NCBI GenBank assembly: GCA_040386335.1
Contig: JAZKFT010000063.1
Location: 1,351-65,350, forward strand
DNA length: 64,000 nucleotides
Source: Bacteroidota bacterium
GTDB lineage: Bacteria; Bacteroidota; Bacteroidia; Chitinophagales; Chitinophagaceae
Direction of reading: 5' to 3'
Below, piece by piece: positions 13,301 to 61,024 of this stretch (the first letter of the stretch is position 1; each line of letters begins with the position of its first letter). The notes beneath the pieces are model-generated. The model ran no database searches. It worked only from the letters and a program-made list of their open reading frames with translations, and was not told the DNA's origin. The translations under genes were made by a program, and so were the position numbers.

Positions 13301-13434
13301 TTCGATAACCCATCCCTGGTAGTAAAATGCCTGTATTTGGCTGCTGATTGAGTAGGCTGCGCCATTGAAACAAAGTCAGCAGCCGCTAAAATGATCAGTA
13401 GAAAGCACCTGTATTTGCAATGTTTGTAATTCAA
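10348..13434 (-). CDS. Sensor histidine kinase with periplasmic two-component-regulator propeller repeats + Y_Y_Y domain, HisKA_3/HATPase_c core
   Basis: Repeated GLNRFD/GLSRFD propeller motifs. Y_Y_Y region YAYQLEGRNNNW...PPGNYVLHVKA, then a TM helix. H-box SSDLHDEVGSTLSGL; G-box DNGSRK...GLGLSNM. TTG start, so the 5-prime end is uncertain. Confidence 0.85.
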   Translation of the reverse strand: MNYKHCKYRCFLLIILAAADFVSMAQPTQSAAKYRHFTTRDGLSNNYVSSLIQDQYGFIWIGTSNGLNRFDGYDFVQYTNRIGDTNSISSNFIKTVFLDSKGFIWVATNNGLNRFDPKTETFKHFRHRDNDTTSIANNQVTSIYEDEAGYLWVGAFQTLDRLDPKTGIFTHYRPPATSITGETLTIEGIIVFEGDVFLSVWGVGVYRFSRKTHRFVPVRIVHKIGREKNWLHHFYIDKKGNLLAADGRFLRFNPKENAFVAIGKDEWGGVYTSVSCIAELSHGKYLAGTTGSGFNSYNSGLELEGSQVLDRDTSIRANNSLQELLTTQSGEVWFGMAGNGLFLWDTNLKKFNGYEHQPNNVNIISAGPVSGVSWSQQGQLWLSSRLAGIGIFDPQKQFFSQVKPQQNGLNTLHVKTIFEDRQGNKWIGTWGGGLNRIDAKTGAFSYFTKGVNSATSLQDDYVTSFCQSPDDRIWVATTRGISVIETKGKQVPGLKSFVYQPGSNKCPAGLRTDALLCDRAGNIWIGTDANGLSRYNPSVDRFDFFQYSFNDINSLGSNKINTLFEDSKHRIWIGCSGGGLNLFVPEKNEFVHYSENDGLPGNEIRGIVEDNRGILWITTDKGLSRFDTKKYSFKNYNVEDGLLSNQFLAQAICKSPADGKIYAGTNNGLVAFYPDSIGNNKFIPPVYINSFKKYRTKDKQTTTEYIRGIQHLTTVELEYNENTFTLSFVSLNYSNSEKNQYAYQLEGRNNNWVMLGTTRELTFSNLPPGNYVLHVKASNSDLVWNEKGSSLIIKILPPWWRTWWACVLYALAVVALSYFFIRQRVKQGIRKLKEQEALRTKISSDLHDEVGSTLSGLAMQSQMMTYTAPAGQKEALTEISNMSREAMDQMRDIVWAMDSRKDKLENLVDRMRAFAEKCLGLKNMTHDFMIENIDAKRFINAEKRQAIYLVFKEAITNIIKHSDAGHVFIKFAFVKSGLYLLIHDNGSRKQAINSDGLGLSNMKMRAEKIGGKLTTGYDNGFVVELTVG

Positions 13435-47362: not shown

Positions 47363-47617
47363 TTATCTTGTCACCATTGCTACCCAATGCACCCAGGTTC
47401 TCATCCGGGCGTCAGGGTCATCCATAATTATTGCAAAACTTTTCGTGTTTTCAGGAGCCCCAGTCTTACTAAGCGGTGGTAAAACATTAGAACCATCACA
47501 AGTAAATTTAACCGGGACAGGCTTACCAACTTCGAAGGCGGAGCTGAACTATTGAAATTTGCCTGATGCCTGCGCAGTTGCTACTCCTGTTATAAAAAGA
47601 AAATTAAAAAGGAACAT
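47363..47617 (-). pseudogene. PEBP (YbhB/YbcL) family pseudogene
   Basis: Hand translation: MFLFNFLFITGVATAQASGKFQ*FSSAFEVGKPVPVKFTCDGSNVLPPLSKTGAPENTKSFAIIMDDPDARMRTWVHWVAMVTR*. There is an in-frame TAG at codon 23 and the C-terminal half is lost. Confidence 0.5.
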
Positions 47618-47649
47618 ATGGCTTAAAAGAATTCTGAGTGAACATTCGT

Positions 47650-47734
47650 CGGCTGGCACCGAAGCCGAATAGCAAAAATGCTGAGAATTTATTCGTTGCC
47701 CCGCCATATTGCCAATGCAATGTTATGCGTTCGG
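47650..47734. repeat. Intergenic repeat family, copy C (internally deleted)
   Basis: GGCTGGCACCGAAGCCGAATAGCAAAAATGCTGAGAATTTA...GCCAATGCAATGTTATGCGTTCGG matches the two ends of copy B. Confidence 0.6.
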
Positions 47735-47775
47735 CATTCATTCAGTATAGTTAGTATTTTAACTACTGATGTTAG

Positions 47776-48015
47776 TTATAAGCCAACCCTATTCTTAAGG
47801 TCCTTAAATCTCACATCATTTCTAATTCGTTTCCAGCGGGGATCATGGTTCAGCCAGAGTAAGCAGCCATGAATGCCACCACCATCTTCTGCATCCCTGT
47901 TTAGCCAGAGAAAAGTGTTTTCGAAATCTCCAGGAGCTTCATACACTGAGGCTATTTAATACTTCACCACATGCTCACCTCCTGCATATATGTCCAGCAC
48001 TTCTTGTAATGCCAG
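47776..48015 (-). pseudogene. 3-prime remnant of a gene with a TPR-protein-type C-terminus; internal stop
   Basis: Hand translation: LALQEVLDIYAGGEHVVKY*IASVYEAPGDFENTFLWLNRDAEDGGGIHGCLLWLNHDPRWKRIRNDVRFKDLKNRVGL*. The W.N.DPR....R.D.RF.DL..RVGL ending is typical. No start codon. Confidence 0.4.
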
Positions 48016-48058
48016 TTAATGCTGAATTTTTTTTACATTCAATTCAAAATTGCCTGTT

Positions 48059-49222
48059 ATGAAAACATGTTGCTTTACTTTAATTGTTCTTCTTTTTTCT
48101 GTGCTGCTACAGGCACAGCATGTAGGTGTAAACACCAGCGAACCCCAAGCGTCTCTAGATGTAAATGGTGCATTGGCTCTAAGAGCCGCTGCCAACATCC
48201 AGGAGTTAAACCAGCCTGTTTCATTGCTCGACCTCAGCAACCGATCATATGTACGGTTTTTTGTGAACAACGGAAACGGTAATCTGCAAAGGAACATAAA
48301 GCTCAGTGCTGGCGTTCCCGGGCAGATCAGCACCGTCGAATTTACGGGTGCCGGTAACGGTACGCTCATCAACGGGAGTCGGCATGCCGGTGGTGGCAAA
48401 GTGATCCTGGCCGGCGACGTGCTGTTTCAAAACAAAACAATGGTGCTGTCCCTGGTGTTTGTCAACAATAACTGGAGGGAATTGTACAGAACTGAGAACC
48501 TGCCCAATGAAACGGATACGATAAGCGTGACTTACAATATTCCCGGAACCTATTTATTTACAGTGCCGCCCGGCGTGCAACAAATAAGAGTAACCGTGAA
48601 TGGCGCAGGTGGCTGGGGGGGCGGCAGTTTTCCTCCCACCACCGGAAGCGGTGGGCGTGGGGGAAAACTGATTTGCCTCATTAATACTACAGAAGGACAG
48701 CAGCTGGAAGTTGGTATTGGCGCAGGTGGTGGCGTAAATCAAAAAGGAAAGATCACTTATATAAAATCAGGCACTACCTACCTGCTTTTGGCTGGCGCAG
48801 GTGGGAACGGATCTAAAAACGGCGGAGTGGGCGGAGCCGGCGGGTCCGTGGGTGGCAATGGGCTAATCGGCCAGAATTCAATGGGCACAGGCGGTGGTGG
48901 GGCTACCGTGAATGCCGGCGGGGCAGGCGGTATTTCGGGTGGTGCCGGTGCCGGGCAGGCGGGCATAGCACTTACGGGCGGCACCTTGTTTACGTTTAAC
49001 CAGGGTGAAGGTTTTGGTGGGGATGGATGGTTTGGTGGCGGTTCTTCAGGAGCATATACATCTGGAAGCGGCAGCAACCCATGGGCCTCCGGCGGCGGTG
49101 GTGGGGGAAGCAATTACCAGCATTCAACGGTAACCAGTTTACTTAATAACAGCCTGGGTAATGAGGGTGGCTTAGGGGCCGCAAGTGGGGGACACGGCAA
49201 TGTAAAAATTGAATGGTATTGA
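48059..49222 (+). CDS. Exported glycine-rich-domain protein with fibre-type N-terminal module
   Basis: ATG at 48059. Leader ...VLLQAQ, then HVGVNTSEPQASLDVNG. YLFTVPPGVQQIRVTVNGAGGWGGG...GGRGGKL...IGAGGG and further GGxGG runs to the C-terminus. Confidence 0.7.
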   Translation: MKTCCFTLIVLLFSVLLQAQHVGVNTSEPQASLDVNGALALRAAANIQELNQPVSLLDLSNRSYVRFFVNNGNGNLQRNIKLSAGVPGQISTVEFTGAGNGTLINGSRHAGGGKVILAGDVLFQNKTMVLSLVFVNNNWRELYRTENLPNETDTISVTYNIPGTYLFTVPPGVQQIRVTVNGAGGWGGGSFPPTTGSGGRGGKLICLINTTEGQQLEVGIGAGGGVNQKGKITYIKSGTTYLLLAGAGGNGSKNGGVGGAGGSVGGNGLIGQNSMGTGGGGATVNAGGAGGISGGAGAGQAGIALTGGTLFTFNQGEGFGGDGWFGGGSSGAYTSGSGSNPWASGGGGGGSNYQHSTVTSLLNNSLGNEGGLGAASGGHGNVKIEWY

Positions 49223-49658
49223 TCTTCTGTGGGAAATTTTACTTTAATGCGGATACATTGTATGAAATGCCATAAAGACATTTCCCAATGGTTCAGGATA
49301 TAAGAAAAAATTAAATAATTGGATGTTGTCGAATCCTGGTAGCAGCAGAGTTGAAAAGGATATTTTGGCAAGCACATATGTAAAAGTGAATAAAATGTAA
49401 CTGATAAACTTCGAAGCCCTGGTAGCTGATGATTTTATTGCAACGCTGTGATAAAGGCTAGTTCATTAACGTAATGTTGGGATTATCGCTGGAAGCAGCT
49501 TTATAAGTCTGAATCTCCAGACAAAGGGTATTAATGTACGGTCTCCCCATGCAGCTGTCCCTTTCATCCGCCATGTCCTGAAAAGTAAACGATTGTTGAA
49601 CTTTCGTCTAAACGCTGAGTTCATTTCTCGTGTTTTATTATTAGCTTACAATTAGACT

Positions 49659-52037
49659 ATGACTAAGATATGCTGCTTGTGGTTTGTTTTTTTTAACGCT
49701 GTTGTTTTTGCACAGAGCAAAGACAAGAATGAGACGCATACTGTAGTTAGAAACAAGGAGTTGAAAAATGCCACGATTCAAACTACTCCTACAATTTCTG
49801 AATTAATCCTGTTATTGCAAAAACCGGAAACCGTTTCAAAAAAAGTTGACATACTTTATGAGATTGCTGAAGGTTATGCTAACTATCTCAAAATTGATTC
49901 TGCCCTTTTTTATGCCCAAAAAATAAAAGCTGTTTCAGACAGTGCAGGTTACGAAGCTGGTCTTGCTAAATATTATCTCGCCAGGGGTTCTGCTTTATAT
50001 TACCGCAACAAGGGTGTTGAGGTAACACAAAATCTACAGCAGGCAATCAGTTTATTCACACGATACAACAACAACCTTTTTCTTGGCATAAGTTATCACC
50101 AGTTGGCAAGACATACAGCCAACACGAGAGATTATTCAGGAGCGGAAAAATTTTATCGTAAGGCTGTGTCGCTCCTGGTTGGTTCCGGAGATGTTAGCAA
50201 GCTGCAATTTGCTGTCTATAATCTCGGACGAAATTTTTATCTCAGTTTGGAGTTAGATAGTGCTGCTTATTATTTGTCGTGGGGTTTGCGGCTGGCTGAA
50301 GGTATACAGAGTAAACCAAAAATATTTACCATAGCCGCTATGCTTGGTGCGGTGTATTTTACTGCCGGAAATAATAACGAGGCCGAACGGATATTGAGTT
50401 ATGCTTTGGCTAATCAGCCTTCCTTCATCGACAAAGTGCATCTGCGTGGTGTGTTGGCTAATTATGCAGAAGTGCTAACCTCACAAGATAAATATGAACA
50501 AGCCGCAAAAGCAATAACGGACTACGCGAAAATCAATGTTTCGTTTGGAGATGTTTGGGGCCGCATGACAGAGATGAAATTAAAAGGGGCCCTGCTATAT
50601 CGCCAGGGTCATTATGACGCTGCGCTTCGTTATTTACAGGATGGGTATAAACTGAATCCCGGTGAGCATTTATTTGCACATGATTTAATGAATCTTGCTT
50701 CTTATCTCGGAAAAACAGAATTAAAAACCGGGCATGCAGACAGTGCGATTATTCATTTTCATCTCGCAAAAAAGCTGGCAACGGAATCGAATTTTATAGC
50801 CGGAATACTTGAAGGGAACATGCTGTTGGCGGAGGCTTTCCGGCAAAACAATAAAATGGATTCTGCTTACCACTATTTCCATTACTACGCTCATCTTAAA
50901 GATTCTATACTGACTTTTAAAAAAGAAAGAACAGTGATGGAGTTGAGTGCGAAATACAATGCTGAAAAAAAGGAACAACAGATAAAAAATCTGCAAACAG
51001 AAAAGCAGGTGTATGATTTTCAGCTGATGTTGAAAAACAAAACCATTGAGCAGCAAGAGCTGGTTGGACTAAAAAATGCGCAGCAGCTAACACTGCTGAC
51101 ACAACAATCGGAAATAAGCAGGCTGCAGGCATCCGAGAAAAGCCTGGCATTAGAAAACCGTGAAAAAGAGTTTTTAAAGAAACAGAAAGAACTGGAGTTG
51201 TTGCAAAAAGAAAAACAATTACAATCGGCATTGGCAGCAAAGCAGGCACAGCAAAAAAATCTTCTTTTTTTTATTATTGGTGCTGTTTTGTTGTTTGTAT
51301 TATATGGTGCACACCGTTATAAGCAGAATAAGAAATTAACTGAACAACTATCACAATCTCTTATAGATTTAAAACTGGCGCAGGAACAAATAATAAAATC
51401 GGAGAAAGAAAAAGAATCAGAAAATGTCAGGGTAAGCATTAGTCGCGATATACATGATGAAGTGGGTGCTACACTGAGCGGGGTAGCCTTATTTAGTGAA
51501 ATAGCAAAGCAAAAAGTATTGCAGCATAACCAGCAGGATGCACTTGAATATCTTGGCCATATTTCAACCAATTCAAAAGAAATGGTTGAAAAAATCAGTG
51601 ACATTGTTTGGTCTATTAATCCTGAGAATGACAGCTTTGAACGTATCACCGAAAAGCTGAAAGCTTACACCTTAAACTTATGCGCCGGCAGAGGCATTCG
51701 TTTGAGCTTTAACGTAGATGAAAACATAAACAATTTGGCTCCTGCCATGCAGGTACGAAGAAATATTTACCTGTTCTGTAAGGAGGCTATCAACAATGCT
51801 ATAAAATATTCAGGCTGCCGTCATTTTTCGTTTTCATTGCAGTGGGGTACCGGGCATAGTTTGCTGGAGATAAAAGATGATGGCACCGGCTTTAATGAAG
51901 ACACGGTGATAAAAGGCAATGGCCTGAAAAATATGCAGGCAAGAGCTAACGACTTGAAAGCAGACTTTGAATTGAAAACGGGGCCGGGTAAAGGAACAAA
52001 CATAAAGCTGCGTTTTAATTTTCACCCAAACGGGTGA
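49659..52037 (+). CDS. TPR-repeat sensor histidine kinase (signal peptide, about 450-aa TPR region, coiled coil, TM helix, HisKA_3 + HATPase_c)
   Basis: Leader ending VFAQ. Long helical repeat region. Q/K/E-rich coiled coil. TM helix LLFFIIGAVLLFVLYGA. H-box SRDIHDEVGATLSGV. G-box DDGTGF...GNGLKNM. Confidence 0.85.
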   Translation: MTKICCLWFVFFNAVVFAQSKDKNETHTVVRNKELKNATIQTTPTISELILLLQKPETVSKKVDILYEIAEGYANYLKIDSALFYAQKIKAVSDSAGYEAGLAKYYLARGSALYYRNKGVEVTQNLQQAISLFTRYNNNLFLGISYHQLARHTANTRDYSGAEKFYRKAVSLLVGSGDVSKLQFAVYNLGRNFYLSLELDSAAYYLSWGLRLAEGIQSKPKIFTIAAMLGAVYFTAGNNNEAERILSYALANQPSFIDKVHLRGVLANYAEVLTSQDKYEQAAKAITDYAKINVSFGDVWGRMTEMKLKGALLYRQGHYDAALRYLQDGYKLNPGEHLFAHDLMNLASYLGKTELKTGHADSAIIHFHLAKKLATESNFIAGILEGNMLLAEAFRQNNKMDSAYHYFHYYAHLKDSILTFKKERTVMELSAKYNAEKKEQQIKNLQTEKQVYDFQLMLKNKTIEQQELVGLKNAQQLTLLTQQSEISRLQASEKSLALENREKEFLKKQKELELLQKEKQLQSALAAKQAQQKNLLFFIIGAVLLFVLYGAHRYKQNKKLTEQLSQSLIDLKLAQEQIIKSEKEKESENVRVSISRDIHDEVGATLSGVALFSEIAKQKVLQHNQQDALEYLGHISTNSKEMVEKISDIVWSINPENDSFERITEKLKAYTLNLCAGRGIRLSFNVDENINNLAPAMQVRRNIYLFCKEAINNAIKYSGCRHFSFSLQWGTGHSLLEIKDDGTGFNEDTVIKGNGLKNMQARANDLKADFELKTGPGKGTNIKLRFNFHPNG

Positions 52038-52080
52038 AGCCAAATCTGAGATTATTGTAAGTTATTTATCAAAACAAAGA

Positions 52081-52722
52081 ATGGCAATAAGGGTAGCAAT
52101 ATTTGAAGACAATAAACTAATGCGAAATGGCTTTGAAGCCATCTGCAATGGTACCGAAGGACTTATGTGTAGCGGTGCCTTTGCTGATAGTTTTGACCTT
52201 GACTTCAAAATAAAAAAGGCCGCTCCACAGGTTATTCTTATGGATATTGAAATGCCAGGCACTGATGGTATAGCAGCTACACGCCATGTAATAAAAAAAT
52301 GGCCGGAGATAAAAATCCTGATACAAACGGTATTTGAAGATGATGATAAGATTTTTAAAGCTATTTGTGCAGGTGCATCGGGCTATATACTAAAGTCAAC
52401 TTCGCCTGCAAGGTTAGTTGAATCTATCATAGAAGTTTACAACGGTGGCTCGCCTATGAGTCCATACATAGCCAGCCGTGTATTAAAACTTTTTCAGCAA
52501 TTTGCACCCACAGAACAGCAAAACGAAGATTACAGCCTAAGCAGCCGTGAAAAAGAAATTCTTTCACTGATGGTGGAAGGAATCAATTTGCAGTTGATAG
52601 CCGATAAAATTTTCATTTCGTATGAAACGGTGCGCAGTCACGTCAAGCGCATCTACAAAAAGCTTCATGTAGCTTCTGCGTCAGAGGCAGTAGCAAAGGC
52701 AATCAGGCAGCGCATCATCTGA
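52081..52722 (+). CDS. NarL/FixJ-type response regulator (REC + LuxR HTH)
   Basis: VAIFEDNKL, ILMDIEMPGTDG, REC pattern. LSSREKEILSLMVEGINLQLIADKIFISYETVRSHVKRIY. Confidence 0.9.
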   Translation: MAIRVAIFEDNKLMRNGFEAICNGTEGLMCSGAFADSFDLDFKIKKAAPQVILMDIEMPGTDGIAATRHVIKKWPEIKILIQTVFEDDDKIFKAICAGASGYILKSTSPARLVESIIEVYNGGSPMSPYIASRVLKLFQQFAPTEQQNEDYSLSSREKEILSLMVEGINLQLIADKIFISYETVRSHVKRIYKKLHVASASEAVAKAIRQRII

Positions 52723-52837
52723 TCCATTTAATTAGCTGCGTTAATACGCACCCCCAATTTCTTATACAGCCTTAAAATTCACCCACCTGGGGTATAGTTC
52801 AACCTATGCTGCATTCGGAATTTCACAATCTCCTTAC

Positions 52838-54040
52838 ATGCAATTTTTAAAACCAGGTTTTATGAGACAGCTATTTTATGTTCCCGCAGTATTTCTCTTT
52901 GCTGTGGCATTAACGGCAGGTGTATTATCTACATCGGCAAAAAAGAATTATCGTTTTTTCAGCGAACGAAATATTACGACAGCCGAATACCAGTTTGCCC
53001 TTTCCATATTTGCAAGAGAGTTTCCGCCAAAAGACATGATCACACTTACCAATGGAACGGGCTTTAGTAACAGGCCGTATGTAAGACCTTCTATCAATGG
53101 TGGTGTGCAAATGAATCTTGGCGATATATACAGCGATCCCCTTTCTACGCCAAGCAGCAGGGAGCTTTTTGCACATGAGCTAACACATGCCTGGCAGTTA
53201 GAACACTATGGATATGCATGGTACATTAAGCAGGCAATCGGAAACCAGGTGGTAGATGGTGCACCATATGATTATGTATGCGATGCTGCTAAAACGCTGG
53301 GCGACTATAATGCAGAACAGCAGGGTGAAATAGTAAAAGACTACTATAAAAAAAATGTATGTGCCACCGCTGTTGCGCGCCCATTGAGAAGTGCTACATG
53401 GAAATTATTGACAGGAAGCGATGCAGTGGATATGGCTGTTAACAACGATGGCACATACTATATGGTGAATACTGCAGGCATCATTTACAACTATAAAACA
53501 ACAGATAATGACTGGAATAAAATGCAGGGTAGTGCAGGAAAAGCAATCGCCGCCAATGCAGGAAAAGTCTGCATGGTTAATTCGGTTGGAAATATTTACG
53601 AACTAGCTGGAACGGCCTGGAAGAAAATGCCTGGTAGCTCAGGAAAAGATGTTGGTATTGATGCTGATGGAACAATATGGATGGTGAATACTGCCGGTAA
53701 AATTTATAAATACTCAGGTACTAAATGGATGCAGATGCCAGGGAGCGACGCCGCCAGGATAGCTGCAGGTGGAGGACAAGTTTGGATGGTAAATACTGTC
53801 GGTAAAATATATCGATACAATGGCACTAAATGGACCCAAATGTCTGGTAGTGCAGGATTAGATATTGCTGTGGCCAACGATGGTAAAGTTTTTATGACGA
53901 ATAACGTTGGCAAGATTTACCAATGGGGCGGCAATGCGTGGATGCAGCTTGATGGCAATGATGGAAGAAAAGTATCAGCAAATAATAACAAGCTGGTTCT
54001 TGTAAACAAAAAAGGAAGAATGTATTTCAGAACATACTGA
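52838..54040 (+). CDS. Exported HExxH-motif domain fused to a six-repeat tectonin-like beta-propeller
   Basis: Hydrophobic leader (alternative ATG at 52862). HELTH at 53174-53188 (LFAHELTHAWQLEHYG). Six ~35-aa repeats of the type G.IY.Y.GT.W.QMPGS....IA....G.VWMVN (53393-54037). Confidence 0.7.
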   Translation: MQFLKPGFMRQLFYVPAVFLFAVALTAGVLSTSAKKNYRFFSERNITTAEYQFALSIFAREFPPKDMITLTNGTGFSNRPYVRPSINGGVQMNLGDIYSDPLSTPSSRELFAHELTHAWQLEHYGYAWYIKQAIGNQVVDGAPYDYVCDAAKTLGDYNAEQQGEIVKDYYKKNVCATAVARPLRSATWKLLTGSDAVDMAVNNDGTYYMVNTAGIIYNYKTTDNDWNKMQGSAGKAIAANAGKVCMVNSVGNIYELAGTAWKKMPGSSGKDVGIDADGTIWMVNTAGKIYKYSGTKWMQMPGSDAARIAAGGGQVWMVNTVGKIYRYNGTKWTQMSGSAGLDIAVANDGKVFMTNNVGKIYQWGGNAWMQLDGNDGRKVSANNNKLVLVNKKGRMYFRTY

Positions 54041-54083
54041 TAACTGATTAGAAATTTCAAATAAAGACAACCCGAATAGGTTT

Positions 54084-55553
54084 ATGAAAACGATATCTTT
54101 TTATGGTAGCTTTTTAGCCTTGTTCTTTGTTTTGATTGTTCGTTCAGCAATTTGCTTTTCTCAAAACGTAGGCATTGGCACCAACATACCGGTATTTAAG
54201 TTAGACGTAAAAAACGGCAGCATCAATACCGATTCAGTTTATCGCATTAGCAGCAAAACAGTGTTGTCAATAAAAGGAACGCATAATACTTTCATTGGCA
54301 TTGGCGCCGACAGTTCTATTACGACCGGAAGTAATAATACTGCTTCGGGCTACCAGGCACTTTATTTCAATACAACCGGGGAAATTAATACAGCTATTGG
54401 CACCACTGCACTATACAACAACATGACTGGTTATAGAAACGTTGCTATTGGCAGCAGTGCACTTTATACTAACACAAGCGGTTATTATAATACGGCTGTT
54501 GGTGCACTGGCTCTTGCAAATAGTACAGCTTCGGAAAATACAGCGGTTGGTTATTATACGCTGGCTTTTAATACAACAGGGCGGCAAAATACTGCAACCG
54601 GGGCTTCAGCACTTAGAACCAATACTATCGGGGATTATAATACAGCAATTGGTTACGCTGCACTATATACTAACACAACCGGTGACAGGAATACAGCTAC
54701 CGGCAATGAAGCACTTCGTAGTAACATCACTGGCTTTAGTAATACAGCGAATGGCCATATGGCTTTGCATTCAAATACAATGGGCCCGAATAATACGGCT
54801 ACGGGCAGCGGTGCACTTGATGATAATACGACTGGTAGCGATAATACCGCTACAGGTCTTGGAGCTCTTGGCGATAATTCAACTGGATATGACAATACTG
54901 CTACCGGAGTTCTTGCACTCTGGCATAATTCAACCGGGCATGCTAATGCGGCTTACGGGAACCAGGCACTCTCTGCCAACACAACCGGGCAATTCAATAC
55001 AGCCATTGGGGTTGAGGCTGATGTTACTTCAGGGAATTTAATACTTGCGACTGCGATTGGCTACAACGCAAGAGTGGATGCCAACTACAAAGTACGTATT
55101 GGCAGCACAGGTGTAACATCCATTGGCGGGCAAGTAGGTTGGAGTAATTTTTCCGATGGCCGTTATAAACAAAATATACAGGAAAATGTACCTGGAATTT
55201 CATTCATCAATAAGCTTCGCCCAGTAACATACACAGTGGACATAAAAAGTCTTGACGAGCGTTATTATAAATTAAAACCTGGCATTGCTACTGCTGCAGG
55301 TAATTCATATTGTCATACTGGTTTTATTGCACAGGAAGTAGAACGCAGTGCATTAGAACTTGGCTTCAGCTTCAGTGGAGTAGATAAACCCCAACAACCC
55401 AATGGACTCTACGGTTTACGTTATGCAGAATTTGTAGTGCCACTGGTGAAAGCAGTACAAGAGCTGTCAAAAGAAAACAACGAGTTAAAAAATCAAAACA
55501 AGGAATTGCTTGAGCGTATTGTGTCAATTGAAAAAATCTTAAAAACTAAATAG
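54084..55553 (+). CDS. Tail-fibre-like exported protein, paralogue 1: N-module + 13 x 17-residue repeats + S74 intramolecular-chaperone domain
   Basis: Leader ...ICFSQ, then NVGIGTNIPVFKLDVKNG. Repeats follow NTA.G..AL..NT.G... The C-terminus has SDGRYKQNI...LRPVTYTV...HTGFIAQEVE...YGLRYAEFVVPLVKAVQEL plus a coiled coil. Confidence 0.8.
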   Translation: MKTISFYGSFLALFFVLIVRSAICFSQNVGIGTNIPVFKLDVKNGSINTDSVYRISSKTVLSIKGTHNTFIGIGADSSITTGSNNTASGYQALYFNTTGEINTAIGTTALYNNMTGYRNVAIGSSALYTNTSGYYNTAVGALALANSTASENTAVGYYTLAFNTTGRQNTATGASALRTNTIGDYNTAIGYAALYTNTTGDRNTATGNEALRSNITGFSNTANGHMALHSNTMGPNNTATGSGALDDNTTGSDNTATGLGALGDNSTGYDNTATGVLALWHNSTGHANAAYGNQALSANTTGQFNTAIGVEADVTSGNLILATAIGYNARVDANYKVRIGSTGVTSIGGQVGWSNFSDGRYKQNIQENVPGISFINKLRPVTYTVDIKSLDERYYKLKPGIATAAGNSYCHTGFIAQEVERSALELGFSFSGVDKPQQPNGLYGLRYAEFVVPLVKAVQELSKENNELKNQNKELLERIVSIEKILKTK

Positions 55554-55560
55554 GGCCGAT

Positions 55561-56799
55561 ATGAAAAACATATTCCTGTTGCTGCTATCCATTCTGTGTT
55601 TTCCTGTTTCGGTATTCACGCAAAACATAGGCATTGGCACTAACATACCTGCATTTAAGTTAGACGTAAAAAACGGCAGCATCAATACCGATTCAGTTTA
55701 TCGCATTAGCAGCAAAACAGTGTTGTCAATAAAAGGAACGCATAATACTTTCATTGGCATTGGCGCCGACAGTTCTATTACGACCGGAAGTAATAATACT
55801 GCTTCGGGCTACCAGGCACTTTATTTCAATACAACCGGGGAAATTAATACAGCTATTGGCACCACTGCACTATACAACAACACGAGTGGTTATAGAAACG
55901 TTGCCATTGGCAGCAGCGCACTTTATACGAACACAGCCGGTTATTATAATACGGCTGTCGGTGCACTGGCTCTTGCAAATAGTACAGCTACGGAGAATAC
56001 GGCTGTTGGTTATTATACACTTGCTTTTAATACAACAGGGCGGCAAAATACTGCAAGTGGTGCTTTAGCACTTACAAGTAATACCATTGGGGATTATAAT
56101 ACAGCTAATGGTTACTCTGCACTATATTCTAATACTTCAAGCAATGGAAATGTAGCAATTGGTTACCATGCACTTTACAGCGCAACCAGCGGATTCAATA
56201 CTGCTATTGGAGCTTACACGATGGATGGCAATATAAATGGTTCGCTTAATACTGCGATAGGTTGTTATGCAGATGTGAGTCCGTACAATGGCAACATAAG
56301 CAATTCTATTGTCATTGGTAATAGTGCAATTGTTGATGGAAGCAACAAGGTAAGGATAGGCAACGGCATCATTACTTCCATCGGAGGACAAGTAGGCTGG
56401 AGCACATTTTCTGATGCCAGGTATAAGCAAAATATAGAGGAAGATGTGCCAGGCATTTTATTCATCAATAAACTTCGTCCCGTAACATACACGGTAGATA
56501 GCAAAAGCCTTGCTGAAAATTATTACAAATTAAAACCCGGCATTGCTTCTTCCTCTAACAATTCATATCGCCATACTGGTTTTATTGCACAGGAAGTAGA
56601 ACGCAGTGCATTAGAACTTGGCTTCAGCTTCAGTGGAGTAGATAAACCCCAACAACCCAATGGACTCTACGGTTTACGTTATGCAGAATTTGTAGTGCCA
56701 CTGGTGAAAGCAGTACAAGAGCTGTCAAAAGAAAATGACGAATTAAAAAATAAAATCAAGGAATTGCTTGAGCGTATTGTAGCAATAGAAAAAATGTAA
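55561..56799 (+). CDS. Tail-fibre-like exported protein, paralogue 2
   Basis: Same architecture as paralogue 1. 230 nt of the 5-prime part and 164 nt of the 3-prime part are identical to paralogue 1. SDARYK motif. Confidence 0.8.
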   Translation: MKNIFLLLLSILCFPVSVFTQNIGIGTNIPAFKLDVKNGSINTDSVYRISSKTVLSIKGTHNTFIGIGADSSITTGSNNTASGYQALYFNTTGEINTAIGTTALYNNTSGYRNVAIGSSALYTNTAGYYNTAVGALALANSTATENTAVGYYTLAFNTTGRQNTASGALALTSNTIGDYNTANGYSALYSNTSSNGNVAIGYHALYSATSGFNTAIGAYTMDGNINGSLNTAIGCYADVSPYNGNISNSIVIGNSAIVDGSNKVRIGNGIITSIGGQVGWSTFSDARYKQNIEEDVPGILFINKLRPVTYTVDSKSLAENYYKLKPGIASSSNNSYRHTGFIAQEVERSALELGFSFSGVDKPQQPNGLYGLRYAEFVVPLVKAVQELSKENDELKNKIKELLERIVAIEKM

Positions 56800-56818
56800 A
56801 AAACTAAATAGGGCTGAT

Positions 56819-58261
56819 ATGAAAAACATATTCCTGTTGGTGCTATCCATTCTGTGTTTTACTGTTTCGGTATTCACGCAAAACATAGGTATCGGTACAG
56901 CCACACCTGCATTTAAGTTAGACGTAAAAAACGGCAGCATTAATACTGATTCTGTTTATCGGATTGGTGGTAAAAGGGTATTGTCAACAAATCTTCAAAA
57001 TACATTTGTTGGTATTGGCATAGCCAGTTTATCAACGGGAGATTATAATACGGCCGTTGGAAACGAAGCGCTTTATTCCAATACAACCGGAGAGCGGAAC
57101 ACGGCTTTGGGCTTATGGGCATTATACAGCAATACGTCAGGAGATTACAATACCGGCGTTGGAAAATCTGCACTTCATGTAAATTCATACGGTGACGGTA
57201 ATACGGCTTATGGCTATGAAGCCCTTTATACCAATAACGCTTCATTTAACACGGCAGTTGGTTATCACGCATTGCTCTTTAATAGTGGGGGCAATGAAAA
57301 TACAGCCAATGGGTACGAAGCCCTGAATCGCAACAGCACCGGTTATTTTAATACCGCGATTGGGTCACAGTCATTGCTTTTCAATACAACAGGAGCGCGA
57401 AATAGCGCTACCGGCACTAAGGCTCTTTATTCCAATTCCCTGGGTCATTACAATACTGCCAATGGCTATGGAGCACTTTATGGAAATACCCAGGGAACTT
57501 ACAATACTGCCCATGGCTACCAGGCACTTTATTCAAACGGCTTTGGTGATTACAACACGGCATGCGGCACCGAGACACTTTATTCCAACACGGCCGACAG
57601 AAATACAGCGCTGGGTTATAACACACTTTATGCGAATACGATAGGTTTTCAAAATACTGGTGTTGGTTTTTATACGCTGGTTAATAATATTTCAGGCAAT
57701 AACAATACCACTATCGGAAGTTTTAGTGATGTAAGTTCTGGTGATCTGATTAACGCTACTGCTCTTGGTTACTCTACAAAGGTTGATGCCAGCAATAAAG
57801 TGCGGATAGGTAATGCTTCTGTGACTTCCATCGGCGGCCAGGTAGGATGGACAAATTTTTCGGATGGACGCTACAAACAAAATATACGGGAAGACGTGCC
57901 AGGGATTTTATTCATCAACAAACTTCGCCCCGTAACCTACACAGTAGATAACAAAAGCCTTGATGAAAGTTATTACAAATTAAAACCCGGCATTGCTGCT
58001 TCCACGAGCAATCCATATCGCCATACTGGTTTTATTGCACAGGAAGTAGAACGCAGCGCAACAGAATTGGGCTTCATTTTCAGCGGAGTAGATAAACCCC
58101 AACAACCCAATGGACTCTACGGATTACGTTATGCAGAATTTGTAGTGCCACTGGTAAAATCAGTACAAGAGCTGTCAAAAGAAAACGAAGAATTAAAAAA
58201 TCAAAACAAGGAATTGCTTGAGCGTATTGTGGCAATAGAAAAAATCTTAAAAACTAAATAG
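56819..58261 (+). CDS. Tail-fibre-like exported protein, paralogue 3
   Basis: Same architecture. SDGRYK motif. The 5-prime part is near-identical to paralogue 4. Confidence 0.8.
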   Translation: MKNIFLLVLSILCFTVSVFTQNIGIGTATPAFKLDVKNGSINTDSVYRIGGKRVLSTNLQNTFVGIGIASLSTGDYNTAVGNEALYSNTTGERNTALGLWALYSNTSGDYNTGVGKSALHVNSYGDGNTAYGYEALYTNNASFNTAVGYHALLFNSGGNENTANGYEALNRNSTGYFNTAIGSQSLLFNTTGARNSATGTKALYSNSLGHYNTANGYGALYGNTQGTYNTAHGYQALYSNGFGDYNTACGTETLYSNTADRNTALGYNTLYANTIGFQNTGVGFYTLVNNISGNNNTTIGSFSDVSSGDLINATALGYSTKVDASNKVRIGNASVTSIGGQVGWTNFSDGRYKQNIREDVPGILFINKLRPVTYTVDNKSLDESYYKLKPGIAASTSNPYRHTGFIAQEVERSATELGFIFSGVDKPQQPNGLYGLRYAEFVVPLVKSVQELSKENEELKNQNKELLERIVAIEKILKTK

Positions 58262-58268
58262 GGCTGAT

Positions 58269-59570
58269 ATGAAAAGCATATTCCTTTTGTTGCTATCCAT
58301 TCTTTGTTTTACTGTTTCTGTATTCACGCAAAACATAGGTATCGGCATAGCCACACCTGCATTTAAGTTAGACGTAAAAAACGGCAGCATTAATACTGAT
58401 TCTGTTTATCGGATTGGTGGTAAAAGGGTATTGTCAACAAATCTTCAAAATACATTTGTTGGTATTGGCATAGCCAGTTTAGCAACGGGAGATTATAATA
58501 CGGCCGTTGGAAACGAAGCGCTTTATTCCAATACTACGGGGGAGCGGAATACTGCTTTGGGTCTATGGGCATTATACAGTAATGCAACAGGCAACTACAA
58601 CACGGGCGTTGGAAAATCTGCACTTCATTTAAATTTAGACGGTTCCGGTAATACGGCTCAGGGATACGAAGCACTTTATTATAATACCGCTTCATTTAAC
58701 ACGGCGGTGGGTTATCATGCATTGCTACAAAACACCAGCGGCCCCTTAAATACAGCGAATGGCTATGCGGCTTTAGCTCGCAATACTACCGGGAGCAGTA
58801 ACACAGCTCAGGGCACACAGGCATTATTTTATAATACATCTGGTTCTTATAATACCGCTATGGGCTACCAGGCTCTTTATTCAAACTCGTATGGCCGGTA
58901 CAATACTGCCCAGGGGTATAGAGCCCTTTATGGAAATTTGACAGGTTTTGATAATACAGCCATTGGGGTAGAAGCACTTTATTCAAACACTTCCGGTGAG
59001 CACAACACTGCCATAGGGCACCATAGTGATGTTACCTCTGGCAGTTTTCTCAACGCTACTGTTATCGGATATGCTGCCGAGGTTGATGCCAGCAATAAAG
59101 TGCGGATCGGCAATACGGTGGTTACTTCTATTGGGGGCCAGGTAGGATGGACAAATTTTTCGGATAGCCGCTACAAACTAAATATACGGGAAGACGTGCC
59201 AGGCCTTTCGTTTGTTACCGCGCTTCGTCCTGTAACCTACACAGTAGATACAAAAAGCCTTGATGAGAACTATTACAAATTAAAACCCGGAATTGCTGCT
59301 TCTACTAACACTTCTTACCGGCATACAGGTTTTATTGCCCAGGAAGTAGAACGTAGCGCAGCAGCATTGAACTACAGCTTTAGCGGGGTAGATAAGCCGC
59401 AACAACCCGATGGACTCTATGGATTGCGTTATGCAGAATTTGTAGTGCCATTAGTAAAAGCTGTGCAGGAACAACAGCAGCAAGTCAACCATCTGCAGGT
59501 AGAAATTGAGTTGCTGAAAGAACAAAACAAATTACTCATCCAACAACTTAATAAAAAGAACAGGGAATGA
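58269..59570 (+). CDS. Tail-fibre-like exported protein, paralogue 4
   Basis: Same architecture. SDSRYK motif. The C-terminal coiled coil is diverged. The stop overlaps the next start (ATGA). Confidence 0.8.
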   Translation: MKSIFLLLLSILCFTVSVFTQNIGIGIATPAFKLDVKNGSINTDSVYRIGGKRVLSTNLQNTFVGIGIASLATGDYNTAVGNEALYSNTTGERNTALGLWALYSNATGNYNTGVGKSALHLNLDGSGNTAQGYEALYYNTASFNTAVGYHALLQNTSGPLNTANGYAALARNTTGSSNTAQGTQALFYNTSGSYNTAMGYQALYSNSYGRYNTAQGYRALYGNLTGFDNTAIGVEALYSNTSGEHNTAIGHHSDVTSGSFLNATVIGYAAEVDASNKVRIGNTVVTSIGGQVGWTNFSDSRYKLNIREDVPGLSFVTALRPVTYTVDTKSLDENYYKLKPGIAASTNTSYRHTGFIAQEVERSAAALNYSFSGVDKPQQPDGLYGLRYAEFVVPLVKAVQEQQQQVNHLQVEIELLKEQNKLLIQQLNKKNRE

Positions 59571-61024
59571 AAAAGATCACAACACTCGGTTGTAGCCTAT
59601 TTGTATTCACGCATGTTTTATACGCGCAAAATGTAGGCATCGGCACAACCAGTCCGAATGAAAAACTTCATGTGGCCGGAAATTTAAAAGCCGATACCAT
59701 AAAACCTGCTGCCATAAAACTGCCACTTAACGCAGGCGACGGTAAAATATTAACCAGCGATGCGGCGGGTAATGCTAGTTGGAAACTTAATAGTGCAGCG
59801 GCAGCAGGTAATGTTGGTTATGGTGTTTGGGGCGACTGTGCTACTAATGGCAATATCAGTGATTATCAACCAGTGGCCGATGCTAATGGTGAGTTTCCCG
59901 ATAAATTTGGGAACAGCGTCGCCATTGCCGGCGGCTATGCTATTATTGGAACTCCCGGAGATGCTGTAGGAGCAAATACGGGTCAGGGTTCTGTCAGCAT
60001 ATATCAAAACGATGGAAGCGGCTGGATATTGATGCAGAAACTTACAGATGCAACCGGTGCAGCTGATGATAATTTTGGTATTAGCGTAAACATTTCCGGC
60101 AATTATGTGATAGTGGGAGCGCCTAATGATGACATAGGTCCAAATGTTAACCAGGGCTCAGCCAGTATTTATAAATATGTTGGGGCTAGTTGGGTGCTGA
60201 TGCAGAAAATCACGGATGCCGGGGGTGCCGCCAACGATAACTTCGGAATAAGTGTAGCCATTTCGGGTAACTATGCTTTAGCAGGATCCCGTAATGATGA
60301 TATGGGTGCAAACAGCAATCAGGGCTCGGCCAGTTTTTATCAATACGATGGCGCAAATTGGATATTGACACAGAAATCAGCGGAGCCTGGTGGTGCGGCA
60401 AATGATAATTACGGTAATAGTGTTTCTATGTCGGGCGGCTTTGCCGTAATAGGTGTGCCCGGTGATGGTGTAACAGTGTCAGGCATTAATCATGGTTCAG
60501 CTATTATCTATCAATACAATGGTACTACCGGCTGGAACCTTACGCAGAAGCTAACAACTAACACAGGCGCAAACAGCGAATTTTTTGGTACAAGTGTATC
60601 TATATCCGGGAACTATTTTATTGGAGGAGCCCTTCGCGCTGATGTTGGTGCAAATACCGACCAGGGCTCGTGCTGTATTTTTCAGTTTAATGGCAGTAAT
60701 TGGATGCTAATGCAGAAAATATATGATCACTATGGCGAAGCAAGTGATGCATTTGGATCTGCTGTCTCAATTTCCGGAGATTATGCTATTGTTGGAACTC
60801 CTTTTACCTATGTTACTAATAAGATCAATCATGGCTCTGCAACTATTTATCAGCGCATAGGAATGGGCTGGCAAAAGCTGCAATTCATTATTGATCCCGG
60901 TGGTCTTGAGCATAATTTTACCGGTAACGCTGTTGCTGTTGACGGAATCACAAAACAGTTTATTATTGGTGCTTATGGCTATATGAATGTTATCGGCAAA
61001 GTGCTTTTTGGGAAAGTAAATTAA
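59567..61024 (+). CDS. Exported seven-blade FG-GAP-like propeller protein with fibre-type N-terminal module
   Basis: Leader ...VLYAQ, then NVGIGTTSPNEKLHVAGN. Seven repeats of FG.SV.ISG.Y..VGAP.DD.G.N.GQGSA.IY...G..W...QK. Confidence 0.75.
   Translation: MKKITTLGCSLFVFTHVLYAQNVGIGTTSPNEKLHVAGNLKADTIKPAAIKLPLNAGDGKILTSDAAGNASWKLNSAAAAGNVGYGVWGDCATNGNISDYQPVADANGEFPDKFGNSVAIAGGYAIIGTPGDAVGANTGQGSVSIYQNDGSGWILMQKLTDATGAADDNFGISVNISGNYVIVGAPNDDIGPNVNQGSASIYKYVGASWVLMQKITDAGGAANDNFGISVAISGNYALAGSRNDDMGANSNQGSASFYQYDGANWILTQKSAEPGGAANDNYGNSVSMSGGFAVIGVPGDGVTVSGINHGSAIIYQYNGTTGWNLTQKLTTNTGANSEFFGTSVSISGNYFIGGALRADVGANTDQGSCCIFQFNGSNWMLMQKIYDHYGEASDAFGSAVSISGDYAIVGTPFTYVTNKINHGSATIYQRIGMGWQKLQFIIDPGGLEHNFTGNAVAVDGITKQFIIGAYGYMNVIGKVLFGKVN

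Follow-up and report, generated by a model that had tools for sequence, protein, structure and literature searches.

What kind of protein is encoded by six genes that lie side by side, share one short pattern directly behind a signal peptide and then continue into quite different bodies? The question is raised by an island in the window, that is, the whole 64-kb stretch of Bacteroidota DNA analysed here. The original prediction described it as phage-free and took the shared module for a possible adaptor that docks interchangeable fibres or lectins onto one envelope anchor, in a fibre-display system of undescribed function. The open reading frames agree with the gene positions given there (48059–61024). 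Genes A to I all lie on the + strand, and the intergenic gaps from HK to I are −4 to 115 bp.

48059..49222, + strand: gene A; signal peptide, capping-loop motif, about 140 aa, Gly-rich C-terminal domain
49659..52037, + strand: HK; signal peptide, extracytoplasmic TPR region, one TM segment, HisKA_3, HATPase_c (Pfam TPR, HisKA_3 and HATPase_c)
52081..52722, + strand: RR; NarL/LuxR-type response regulator (Pfam receiver domain and GerE)
52838..54040, + strand: gene D; N-terminal hydrophobic segment, HExxH region, lectin-like Tectonin beta-propeller
54084..55553, + strand: fibre E; signal peptide, motif, 17-residue repeat shaft, S74 chaperone
55561..56799, + strand: fibre F; the shortest fibre, with four repeats fewer than E
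56819..58261, + strand: fibre G; Pfam S74, phage tail-fibre and PHROG matches
58269..59570, + strand: fibre H; Pfam S74 and PHROG matches
59567..61024, + strand: gene I; signal peptide, one fibre repeat unit, linker, integrin-alpha-like FG-GAP propeller

The six motif genes (A and E–I) encode proteins of 387–489 aa with three body types: a Gly-rich domain (A), a 17-residue-repeat shaft with an S74 chaperone (E–H) and an FG-GAP propeller (I). As predicted, all six have the same kind of N-terminus, in which a basic and hydrophobic leader is followed by Q and the motif. The shared pattern behind the signal peptide is Q-N/H-[VI]-G-[IV]-[GN]-T-x-x-P-x-x-x-L-x-V, a 16-residue motif. A loose regular expression run on the six-frame translation of the 64 kb gave exactly six matches, all at the N-termini of A and E–I, and a stricter DNA pattern gave four matches against 0.00 expected (100 shuffles).

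48116..48163, + strand: motif of A, QHVGVNTSEPQASLDV, the G/N variant of the capping loop (regular expression)
54162..54209, + strand: motif of E, QNVGIGTNIPVFKLDV (DNA pattern and regular expression)
55621..55668, + strand: motif of F, QNIGIGTNIPAFKLDV (DNA pattern and regular expression)
56879..56926, + strand: motif of G, QNIGIGTATPAFKLDV (DNA pattern and regular expression)
58329..58376, + strand: motif of H, QNIGIGIATPAFKLDV (regular expression)
59627..59674, + strand: motif of I, QNVGIGTTSPNEKLHV (DNA pattern and regular expression)

When the PDB was searched with a profile of viral motif copies, solely structures of Bdellovibrio MAT (mosaic adhesive trimer) fibres were matched: 8OND (E = 1.7e-29, with three copies), then 8OML, 8OL4, 8OJN and 8ON4. 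A second profile, built from the Bacteroidota N-termini, found the same MAT loops and MyRF (7DC3); its other matches, all at E > 1, are not significant. The loops concerned were defined, with near-identical sequences, as capping loops in the MAT study, with the consensus V-G-G/N-pi-x-x-P-x-x-x-L; R656–H669 of Bd3182, RVGVGTTAPTSALH, is a solved example (PMC10769870). In the solved fibres, namely the Bdellovibrio MAT adhesins (PDB 8OJN, 8OND, 8OML, 8OL4) and MyRF, the loop forms a cap over the edge of a trimeric beta-helix unit, at the point where that unit starts. The variant present in A agrees with Bd3182 FFGINTAAPAYNIH and MyRF RVGINTDRPDEALV.

In phage tail fibres, the motif is mostly internal and repeated, with up to nine copies per viral ORF, and the residue before N in the internal copies is G, not Q, in 86 per cent. 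Tail-fibre PHROGs account for 37 of the 50 viral ORFs with the motif, and 18 of the 50 carry S74. The N-terminal 70 aa of I match 24 768 protein clusters, the best matches being giant fibre proteins with 10–43 matched stretches and a median of 18.5 motif copies, up to 54 each. Because it is a capping loop, and internal and repeated in phage and giant fibres, the motif can be read as a marker of fibre-unit start. Judged by sequence comparison, it is the capping loop that begins trimeric beta-helix fibre units, and not a private docking adaptor.

The arrangement of a signal peptide followed directly by QNVGIGT..P..KL.V is found throughout the phylum, at no fewer than 120 Bacteroidota loci. The motif stands directly behind a signal-peptide-like leader, at position +1/+2, in 101 of 127 Bacteroidota matches. 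It also lies within the first 70 aa in 96 of the 120 best homologues of I, with Q in 93, and these homologues were picked without use of the motif pattern. Pfam bodies among 74 module-bearing Bacteroidota proteins include S74 (20), YadA_head (15), FG-GAP_2 (7) and Gly_rich_2 (3). Thus S74, FG-GAP and Gly-rich bodies recur across the motif loci alongside other bodies, and the architecture of A (motif and Gly_rich_2) is also present at two of them, L194 and L125. The module is therefore not restricted to recent local paralogues, and the predicted combination of one N-terminal element with interchangeable bodies holds in the window and well beyond it. The word 'undescribed' overstates the case, because mosaic cellular fibres with a conserved end and variable tips are already known as the MAT superfamily of Bdellovibrio, with Bacteroidota (FCB group) examples of 417–854 aa named in Table S3 of that paper (PMC10769870).

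The strict N-terminal placement could also mean that the motif, at a mature and probably pyroglutamylated end, is an adaptor or sorting tag docking fibres and lectins to one envelope anchor or export machinery. Besides the position of the motif in the Bacteroidota matches and in the homologues of I, conservation within the I family agrees with this: residues 21–40 are the best-conserved stretch (0.85; residues 21–93, 0.77; propeller, 0.70), yet they have no confident fold in the monomer model. A free capping-loop end can moreover act as a ligand, since in the 8OND crystal the N-terminal peptide TSGNLG, the start of a capping loop, binds the tip pocket of a neighbouring trimer. MAT proteins, too, presumably attach to the cell through the conserved N-terminal end (PMC10769870); the presumed anchor there is, however, a different domain of about 130 residues. 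A dedicated adaptor is also at odds with the structural role of the motif in solved fibres, with its internal repetition in phage and giant fibre proteins, and with the fact that only about 16–18 residues are common to the three body classes. Among 124 neighbours in 29 loci, no gene recurred that could be a candidate for the anchor. We regard docking to one common anchor as unlikely, although it has some claim.

The bodies themselves are of phage ancestry. Fibres E–H match Pfam Peptidase_S74 (E = 3e-7 to 1e-8), and all four have the catalytic S-D-x-x-x-K; they also match the tail spike family phrog_4636 (1e-60 to 6e-70; fibre E, 6e-70); tblastn also matched them to phage tail fibres.

55152..55553, + strand: S74 intramolecular chaperone of E, beginning at catalytic Ser357 (SDGRYK)
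56410..56799, + strand: S74 chaperone of F, beginning at Ser284 (SDARYK)
57860..58261, + strand: S74 chaperone of G, beginning at Ser348 (SDGRYK)
59160..59570, + strand: S74 chaperone of H, beginning at Ser298 (SDSRYK)

The DNA identity between E–H is 92–100 per cent at parts of their ends and 45–67 per cent in the distal shaft. For F, the monomer model is of poor quality (pLDDT 54.5), and none of the Foldseek matches obtained with it reaches significance. Gene I has a single fibre repeat unit of about 60 residues, from the capping loop to GKILTSDAAGNASW, and matches FG-GAP_2 in six stretches (E = 3.5e-61). Its predicted propeller (pLDDT > 90) matches integrin alpha (E about 2e-17), and residues 48–93 are of low confidence in the monomer model. 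The match of A to Gly_rich_2 (22.7 bits) is under the Pfam cut-off of 24.3 bits. With this reservation for A, the three unrelated bodies expected behind the module were all matched. Full-length A, G and I gave no match to PDB sequences. Gene D has a Tectonin match (E = 1.4e-32) and the motif HELTH, in line with the earlier description; it had been set apart from the six genes with a signal peptide, but also begins with a hydrophobic segment, MQFLKPGFMRQLFYVPAVFLFAVALTAGVLSTSA followed by KK, and is probably exported or membrane-anchored as well.

With such bodies, the genes might be orphans that supply fibres to a system encoded elsewhere in the genome, be it a prophage, a tailocin or an extracellular contractile injection system (eCIS). 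Some eCIS fibres carry S74 domains, and D gives a weak match to the CIS12 family model, but this match covers the tectonin repeats, and its 28.6 bits fall far short of the cut-off (860 bits). All six proteins have Sec-type signal peptides, which is at odds with the cytoplasmic assembly of phage and eCIS particles. The Pfam scan of 32 further window ORFs (those of at least 150 aa, minus three overlapping longer ORFs) found no phage or eCIS family in the 64 kb, only ordinary chromosomal genes, for instance those for GH43, PhoD, pectate lyase, hydrolases and hybrid two-component regulators. No tRNA was found in the window, PADLOC gave no defence-system component except an HTH match in RR, and no phage or eCIS families recur among the 124 neighbours. 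Fibres of eCIS resemble the window proteins in joining a conserved N-terminal element (eBAP1–5) to variable receptor-binding domains, including S74 and C1q; the eBAP domains are, however, baseplate anchors of 50–200 aa, within eCIS operons and without a Sec signal, and neither applies here (PMC12923769). Likewise, the repeat shaft and S74 domain are homologous to those of S74 phage fibres and spikes (K1F endosialidase, T5 L-shaped fibre pb1, SPO1 gp2.52, Pelagibacter and Methylophilales podophage fibres), many phage fibres having the capping-loop motif; the phage proteins differ in their virion-attachment N-termini, the lack of a signal peptide, the mostly internal motif and their location among capsid and tail genes. 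An orphan origin is thus very improbable, and the predicted phage-free state of the island stands: the proteins derive from phage fibres but are cellular and Sec-targeted, and no prophage surrounds their genes.

The closest known proteins are the MAT fibres of Bdellovibrio bacteriovorus, Bd3182, Bd2133, Bd1334 and Bd2439 (Caulton et al. 2024, PMC10769870). Like these, the window proteins are cellular, with a signal peptide, phage-fibre ancestry and the same capping loop; they are divided into S74 members (S-D-x-x-x-K) and members with other adhesive tips, and there are several paralogues per genome with swapped tips. They differ in size (MATs have about 600–1900 aa) and start directly with the capping loop, lacking the conserved beta-rich N-domain of about 130 residues that is thought to hold MATs on the cell. 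The FG-GAP propeller and Gly-rich domain are not among the listed MAT tips, and the cluster formed by the window genes also includes a TPR-kinase/LuxR pair and a tectonin gene. Unlike Bdellovibrio, the organism is not a known predator. Short Asn/Gly/Ala-rich repeats of beta-roll type, as in YadA heads, are a further likeness, to trimeric autotransporter adhesins; the window fibres have a period of 17 residues and an S74 chaperone instead of the YadA-type C-terminal membrane anchor. On balance, it is rather likely that the island encodes Sec-exported, MAT-like mosaic adhesins made from phage tail-fibre parts, without the MAT N-domain.

The domain scan of the island proteins found neither a T9SS C-terminal domain nor an autotransporter anchor. 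With no evident means of crossing the outer membrane, the proteins could stay periplasmic or be released. They might then be soluble lectins and enzymes, periplasmic or secreted, whose N-terminal segment descends from fibres but which are not themselves presented in fibre form. They are short compared with about 1000 aa for MATs, the neighbouring window genes code for secreted polysaccharide-degrading enzymes, and one related tectonin locus has a Pel9A-like beta-helix where a fibre would stand. S74 chaperones are nevertheless specialized for the folding of trimeric fibres, the repeats of the shaft are similar to repeats in adhesins and phage fibres, and integrin-like propellers and tectonins are binding modules rather than catalytic ones, which makes soluble proteins quite improbable.

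For MAT-like adhesins, the following course may be proposed. Signal peptidase I would probably cut the precursors just ahead of Gln. Such a cut fits the Bacteroidetes Q-rule for exported proteins (Gln directly after the signal peptide), by which the Gln would probably be cyclized to pyroglutamate. The mature chain would open directly with the capping loop and, since this loop marks a unit start in solved fibres, the module may be the structural element with which a short trimeric stalk begins, rather than a specific docking adaptor. Behind it would follow interchangeable binding bodies: a beta-solenoid shaft of 17-residue repeats (E–H), a propeller (I) or a Gly-rich domain (A). The S74 chaperone would help E–H to trimerize and then cut itself off at the Ser of S-D-x-x-x-K, probably exposing the distal, most divergent part of the shaft. 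Gene D is probably a co-expressed lectin-protease. The likely role would be adhesion, at the cell surface, to glycans or other cells.

The upstream TPR-kinase/LuxR pair probably controls expression, and the island may thus be a regulated cluster of phage-derived adhesin-like proteins with a putative function. The association with the regulators and tectonin extends beyond the window to the nearest relative found (L244), in which a TPR-kinase, a LuxR regulator, a tectonin and an S74 fibre follow one another in the same order. It is not general: an RR homologue lies directly upstream of the module gene at only six of 97 other loci (6%), a value whose significance rests on an assumed background rate. 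More distant tectonin homologues do not adjoin capping-loop genes; L244 and L245 both retain a tectonin with an S74 fibre behind it.

Nine genes, all on the + strand, fill 48.06-61.02 kb of the window. Their coordinates were established by ORF listing and translation and their domains by Pfam, and both bear out the gene positions and domain calls of the original prediction.

48059-49222, + strand: A, a protein with a weak Gly-rich domain
49659-52037, + strand: HK, a histidine kinase with TPR, HisKA_3 and HATPase_c
52081-52722, + strand: RR, a response regulator with receiver domain and GerE
52838-54040, + strand: D, with a HELTH motif ahead of Tectonin (E = 1.4e-32)
54084-55553, + strand: E, a fibre with Peptidase_S74
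55561-56799, + strand: F, a fibre with Peptidase_S74
56819-58261, + strand: G, a fibre with Peptidase_S74
58269-59570, + strand: H, a fibre with Peptidase_S74
59567-61024, + strand: I, with FG-GAP_2 (E = 3.5e-61)

The intergenic gaps from the kinase to I range from -4 to 115 bp; the gap between A and the kinase is 436 bp. A scan for sigma-70 promoters and terminators, a model that does not cover Bacteroidota promoters, gave sites no commoner than in shuffled sequences. Protein A scores 22.7 bits against Gly_rich_2, just under the 24.3-bit threshold, and protein I is identical to V4722_28865. Leaders were called by hydrophobicity and position alone, and leaders of signal-peptide type are present in A and E-I. 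D, for which no signal peptide had been predicted, opens with a basic and hydrophobic segment (52838-52945, …RQLFYVPAVFLFAVALTAGVLSTSA followed by KK) resembling a signal peptide or a signal anchor. In the kinase, a signal peptide is followed by just one hydrophobic stretch, near residue 540 (LLFFIIGAVLLFVLYG), from which the TPR region (~500 residues) is predicted to be extracytoplasmic, facing the periplasm, the compartment into which the fibre proteins would be exported.

The motif shared by the exported proteins, Q-N/H-[VI]-G-[IV]-[GN]-T-x-x-P-x-x-x-L-x-V, is real and beyond chance. A loose regular expression run against the six-frame translation of the whole window gave exactly six matches, one at the predicted mature N-terminus of each of A and E-I, the six proteins originally said to share it; the back-translated DNA pattern gave four matches, against 0.00 expected from 100 shuffles. 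About 16-18 residues are common to the three body classes (A, E-H and I), which diverge thereafter.

The same motif is frequent in phage fibres. A DNA pattern for N-[VI]-G-I-G-T-x-x-P-x-x-K-L-x-V, scanned against IMG/VR, was found on at least 120 contigs in at least 182 instances. Among the matches listed, it lies mostly inside long ORFs, with up to nine copies per ORF, and falls in the first 60 residues in 10 of 96 complete-ORF instances. Its usual context is ...ERMRIdSsGNVGIGTtSPxxKLdVxG, and the ORFs that bear it match the tail-fibre PHROGs 9942 (37 of 50) and 18345 (30 of 50), S74 (18 of 50) and Gly_rich_2 (2 of 50). A profile of these viral segments, compared with all PDB sequences, matched only five chains, all of them mosaic adhesive trimer (MAT) fibres of Bdellovibrio bacteriovorus: 8OND (Bd2133; three copies, E = 1.7e-29), 8OML and 8ON4 (Bd1334), 8OL4 (Bd2439) and 8OJN (Bd3182). 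A second profile, made only from Bacteroidota mature N-termini including those of the window, recovered the same MAT loops and mouse MyRF (7DC3), the remaining PDB matches not being significant (E > 1). The PDB profile search led to the MAT paper; a literature search with the motif as a text string found no paper.

In the MATs, segments on the edges of the trimeric beta-helix domains are called 'capping loops' (Caulton et al. 2024, PMC10769870). Those of Bd3182 are R656-H669 (RVGVGTTAPTSALH) and F752-H765 (FFGINTAAPAYNIH); the published alignment also includes LVGIGTATPAAPLH, AVGIGTTNPSGILH and RVGINTDRPDEALV of MyRF, and the consensus is V-G-G/N-pi-x-x-P-x-x-x-L (PMC10769870). Judged by its sequence, the window's motif is the capping-loop element of trimeric beta-helix fibres, and the deviant QHVGVNTSEP of A is the G/N variant of this loop.

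The first 70 mature residues of I were searched with phmmer against 1.84 billion cluster representatives, giving 24,768 matches at E <=1e-3 and 4,900 at E <=1e-10. The best matches are 1,000-7,900 residues long, and each is matched in 10-43 stretches. In the top 150 (P0246-P0395) the motif occurs with a median of 18.5 and a maximum of 54 copies per protein, usually 63-188 residues apart, so the 'module' is a single unit of a fibre repeat that is very abundant. Examples of these giant proteins are P0391 (7,920 aa) and P0252 (7,448 aa). Their repeat unit also aligns with a second conserved element, G-x-[IV]-L-T-S-D/N-x-x-G-x-x-x-W, located ~25-35 residues past the capping loop in I (window 59627-59836). 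This element is present in 97 of 120 homologues of I and in many module proteins with different bodies (loci L155, L165, L194, L125, L139, L207, L221 and L145).

In Bacteroidota the motif is placed at the N-terminus. The Q-prefixed pattern, scanned against one genome per GTDB species, was found at at least 120 loci, which among the matches listed are nearly all from Bacteroidota: Chitinophagaceae, Ferruginibacter, Lacibacter, Saprospiraceae, Hymenobacter, Fluviicola, Sphingobacterium and a Bacteroides MAG. It lies at most 45 residues from an ATG in 113 of the 127 matches listed, and a leader with a hydrophobic core precedes it in 101 of the 127. Few matches are internal, and these include two non-Bacteroidota records, L153 (Woesearchaeota, a DPANN archaeal MAG) and L161 (Candidatus Peribacteria, a CPR bacterial MAG), in whose ORFs the context is phage-like (…ITIDSSQNVGIGTTSP…). 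There are 3,744 homologues of I at E <=1e-20 among the 8,000 candidates scored. Of the best 120 of the 3,744, selected without the pattern, 96 carry the motif within their first 70 residues, 93 of them with Gln two residues before Val; most of the rest are near-variants or truncated. The module therefore reaches beyond the local paralogues, in line with the original prediction. In Bacteroidetes, Gln follows the signal peptide of exported proteins (the Q-rule). Among the viral internal copies listed, 86% have Gly and 2% have Gln ahead of Asn; the occurrence of Gln is therefore tied to the N-terminal position, as this rule would predict.

A 53-aa N-terminal alignment used as homologue query returned 12 short fragments (45-93 aa), and architectures were instead tabulated from the degenerate DNA pattern scans. 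Relatives of the window were found in Chitinophagaceae and Ferruginibacter. A Pfam scan of 73 complete proteins with signal peptide and motif from the listed loci, together with I (n = 74), identified Peptidase_S74 in 20, YadA_head in 15, FG-GAP_2 in seven, Gly_rich_2 in three, Fib_succ_major and Lcl_C in two each, and Kelch, LVIVD and C1q in one each; few other families recur. The three bodies of the window thus recur elsewhere behind the same N-terminus, beside others.

The original prediction suggested that the N-terminal motif may be a dedicated adaptor that docks different fibres or lectins onto one envelope anchor. The motif stretch is indeed strictly N-terminal and highly conserved, and in the 8OND crystal the tip pocket of a neighbouring trimer is occupied by a free TSGNLG peptide, with which a capping-loop motif begins; however, the motif's use elsewhere is internal, repeated and structural, and no conserved partner gene was found among 124 neighbours in 29 module loci, so that we regard such an adaptor as unlikely. 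There is a slim chance that the capping loop, at a mature and probably pyroglutamylated N-terminus, was co-opted in Bacteroidota to attach or sort proteins in a phylum-specific way, or to dock one fibre to another like the TSGNLG peptide bound in 8OND, allowing many unrelated binding domains to use one envelope receptor. If true, this would be a new route of surface display beside T9SS and lipoprotein export.

The four S74 fibres E-H are 54-67% identical in pairwise comparison, and all keep the S74 catalytic S-D-x-x-x-K as SD[GAS]RYK. About 58 residues separate the predicted cleavage site from the first of the 17-residue repeats (NTAxGxxALxxNTTGxx) that form the shaft, and the paralogues differ by gain or loss of whole repeats. 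They match the tail-spike family phrog_4636 (E = 1e-60 to 6e-70) and, by tblastn, fibres of Pelagibacter, Methylophilales, Roseobacter and SPO1-like phages. Two of the phage proteins were examined: they have the repeat shaft and S74 in common with E-H, with ordinary virion-attachment N-termini and genes lying among capsid and tail genes.

At the DNA level, E and F are 94-100% identical over the proximal shaft (window 54162-54461 and 55621-55920), and G and H share 95-97% identity at the N-terminus. In the distal shaft, immediately ahead of the S74 cleavage site, identity drops to 45-67% for all pairs; it is higher again in the chaperone, at 75-93%. Cleavage of an S74 fibre leaves the stretch directly preceding the cut as the exposed tip (PMC10769870). 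This mosaic (54084-59570) suggests that recombination or gene conversion may keep the ends alike while the binding tip region diversifies. An AlphaFold2 monomer model of F, made with its four paralogues as input, reached a mean pLDDT of 54.5 and is poor; its best Foldseek matches, HK620 tailspikes (E ~0.4), are not significant and are not taken as evidence.

Protein I, modelled with 60 homologues, has a confident propeller at residues 95-485 (pLDDT mostly >90), and the best PDB matches of the model are integrin alpha subunits (E ~2e-17). In this monomer model residues 21-47 form a small hairpin (pLDDT 62-68) and residues 48-93 remain below 50. The N-terminal stretch is better conserved across the family than the propeller (0.77 versus 0.70), with 0.85 for residues 21-40. 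A segment conserved yet unfolded in the monomer model would fit a trimerizing stalk and a partner-binding segment equally well. Full-length A, G and I have no match among PDB sequences.

It is very unlikely that these genes encode orphan fibres of a phage or an eCIS. Sec signals are present in all six proteins, eCIS fibres begin with eBAP anchor domains (PMC12923769), and particle genes are absent nearby. The island genes and 32 further ORFs (>=150 aa, three overlapping longer ORFs excepted) contain no phage Pfam family, in agreement with the phage-free window originally described; the 32 encode a glycoside hydrolase, PhoD, a pectate lyase, esterases, hybrid two-component regulators, an ABC protein and the like. 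Pfam found no eCIS gene in the 64 kb, and the window has no tRNA gene; D scores 28.6 bits against the CIS12 model, whose cut-off is 860. PADLOC found no defence-system component in the window apart from an HTH match in the regulator, so the proposed phage-decoy or defence role is without support from known systems. Around 29 randomly sampled module loci (124 ORFs), the commonest neighbours are further S74 proteins (seven), T9SS-tailed proteins (five) and response regulators (three), and the other families listed are ordinary cellular genes, some of them housekeeping. No phage or eCIS family recurs among the first 25 of 165 families.

The closest known system is the MAT superfamily. The MATs and the window proteins have in common their cellular origin, signal peptide, phage ancestry, capping loop, division into S74 and non-S74 types and mosaic tips, the variable tips here being S74 in E-H, an integrin-like propeller in I and, weakly, a Gly-rich domain in A. 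They differ at the N-terminus: right after the signal peptide the MATs have a beta-rich domain of ~130 residues, compared here by its description, which is thought to hold them on Bdellovibrio (PMC10769870) and which the window proteins lack. We therefore describe the latter as working like MATs, as a variant that opens directly with the capping loop, without counting them as demonstrated members. Table S3 of the MAT paper already includes Bacteroidota ('FCB group') proteins among the MATs; these are 417-854 residues long, and one is an S74-like Dokdonia protein of 481 residues (PMC10769870). Its Bacteroidota entries include A0A239D1M7 (Dokdonia), A0A5J4FZN9 and A9E803.

Other systems are more distant. 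The homologous S74 chaperone and shaft are shared with phage tail fibres and tailspikes, but not the virion gene context and the lack of a signal peptide. Neither the eBAP1-5 anchor of eCIS or tailocin fibres, compared by description, nor an eCIS operon was found. There is no YadA-type C-terminal membrane anchor as in trimeric autotransporter adhesins, the sole C-terminal Pfam match being Peptidase_S74. The C-terminal sorting domain of T9SS cargo (Por_Secre_tail/TIGR04183) has no match in A and D-I, and is absent from the 22 Pfam families matched by the 74 module proteins.

We propose that A and E-I would be exported by Sec and cleaved ahead of Gln, and that the capping loop would start a short trimeric beta-helix stalk. 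The S74 chaperone would aid the folding of E-H and then remove itself at the conserved Ser, while in I and A other binding domains would be mounted on a single fibre repeat unit. The kinase and regulator probably set expression, and D is probably a co-expressed lectin-protease. The likely role of the island proteins is adhesion to glycans or cells. As regards surface attachment, they have no T9SS tail, autotransporter anchor or equivalent of the ~130-residue MAT domain; that they are soluble lectins or enzymes rather than displayed fibres nevertheless seems improbable to us. If the MAT-like reading is right, soil and freshwater Bacteroidota have a very large repertoire of secreted, adhesin-like proteins of phage-fibre origin that is essentially unstudied, with more than 3,700 homologues in the FG-GAP family alone among the candidates scored. 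Such proteins, with a common structural motif at the start, swappable binding tips at the end and, for some, two-component control, could shape attachment to polysaccharides, partners or prey, and the MAT principle would extend past obligate predators. What seems new is the breadth of the arrangement of signal peptide, Gln and capping loop in Bacteroidota, the FG-GAP and Gly-rich tips, and the link to TPR-kinase/LuxR pairs; these points are hardly surprising to a specialist.

The clustering with regulators and tectonin recurs elsewhere in part. Homologues of the window's kinase and regulator adjoin module genes in several loci, and 6 of 97 informative cases have a same-strand LuxR-type regulator that ends within 1 kb upstream, with a chance probability of 1e-5 to 0.013 at assumed, unmeasured background rates of 0.5-2%. 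D has 113 homologues, chiefly in Chitinophagaceae. In L244 (GCA_031398005.1; 77% identity), the closest relative examined having a long contig, the order TPR-kinase, LuxR regulator, tectonin and S74 fibre is identical, and the fibres begin with QNVGIGTTTPAFKLDIKNGSINTD. A general association of tectonin and fibres does not hold: capping-loop genes are missing from two of three tectonin-homologue loci inspected, the more distant L246 and L247, and D gave no tblastn match in 120 module loci. The link of the regulators to module genes is therefore moderately supported, and that of tectonin is confined to close relatives. L247 (3527-13169, GCA_964581975.1) has a parallel arrangement of Reg_prop/Y_Y_Y kinase, LuxR regulator, two unknown proteins, tectonin and a Pel9A-like beta-helix, with the capping-loop motif in none of its proteins. 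In the cultivable relative Lacibacter sp. MH-610, kinase, regulator and module gene follow in that order, and this strain might be tractable for the question of outer-membrane crossing and attachment, which is shared with the Bdellovibrio MATs.

Elsewhere in the window, a separate protein of 1,028 residues (10348-13434, - strand; attributed by ORF length) matches FG-GAP_3 (E = 3e-150), without the capping-loop motif or any evident connection with the island. Gene orientation flips from - to + at the island's left edge (window 47500-48100). GC is 0.457 at 48-50 kb, against 0.39 just upstream, and GC skew is positive (+0.10 to +0.14) from 48 kb onward.
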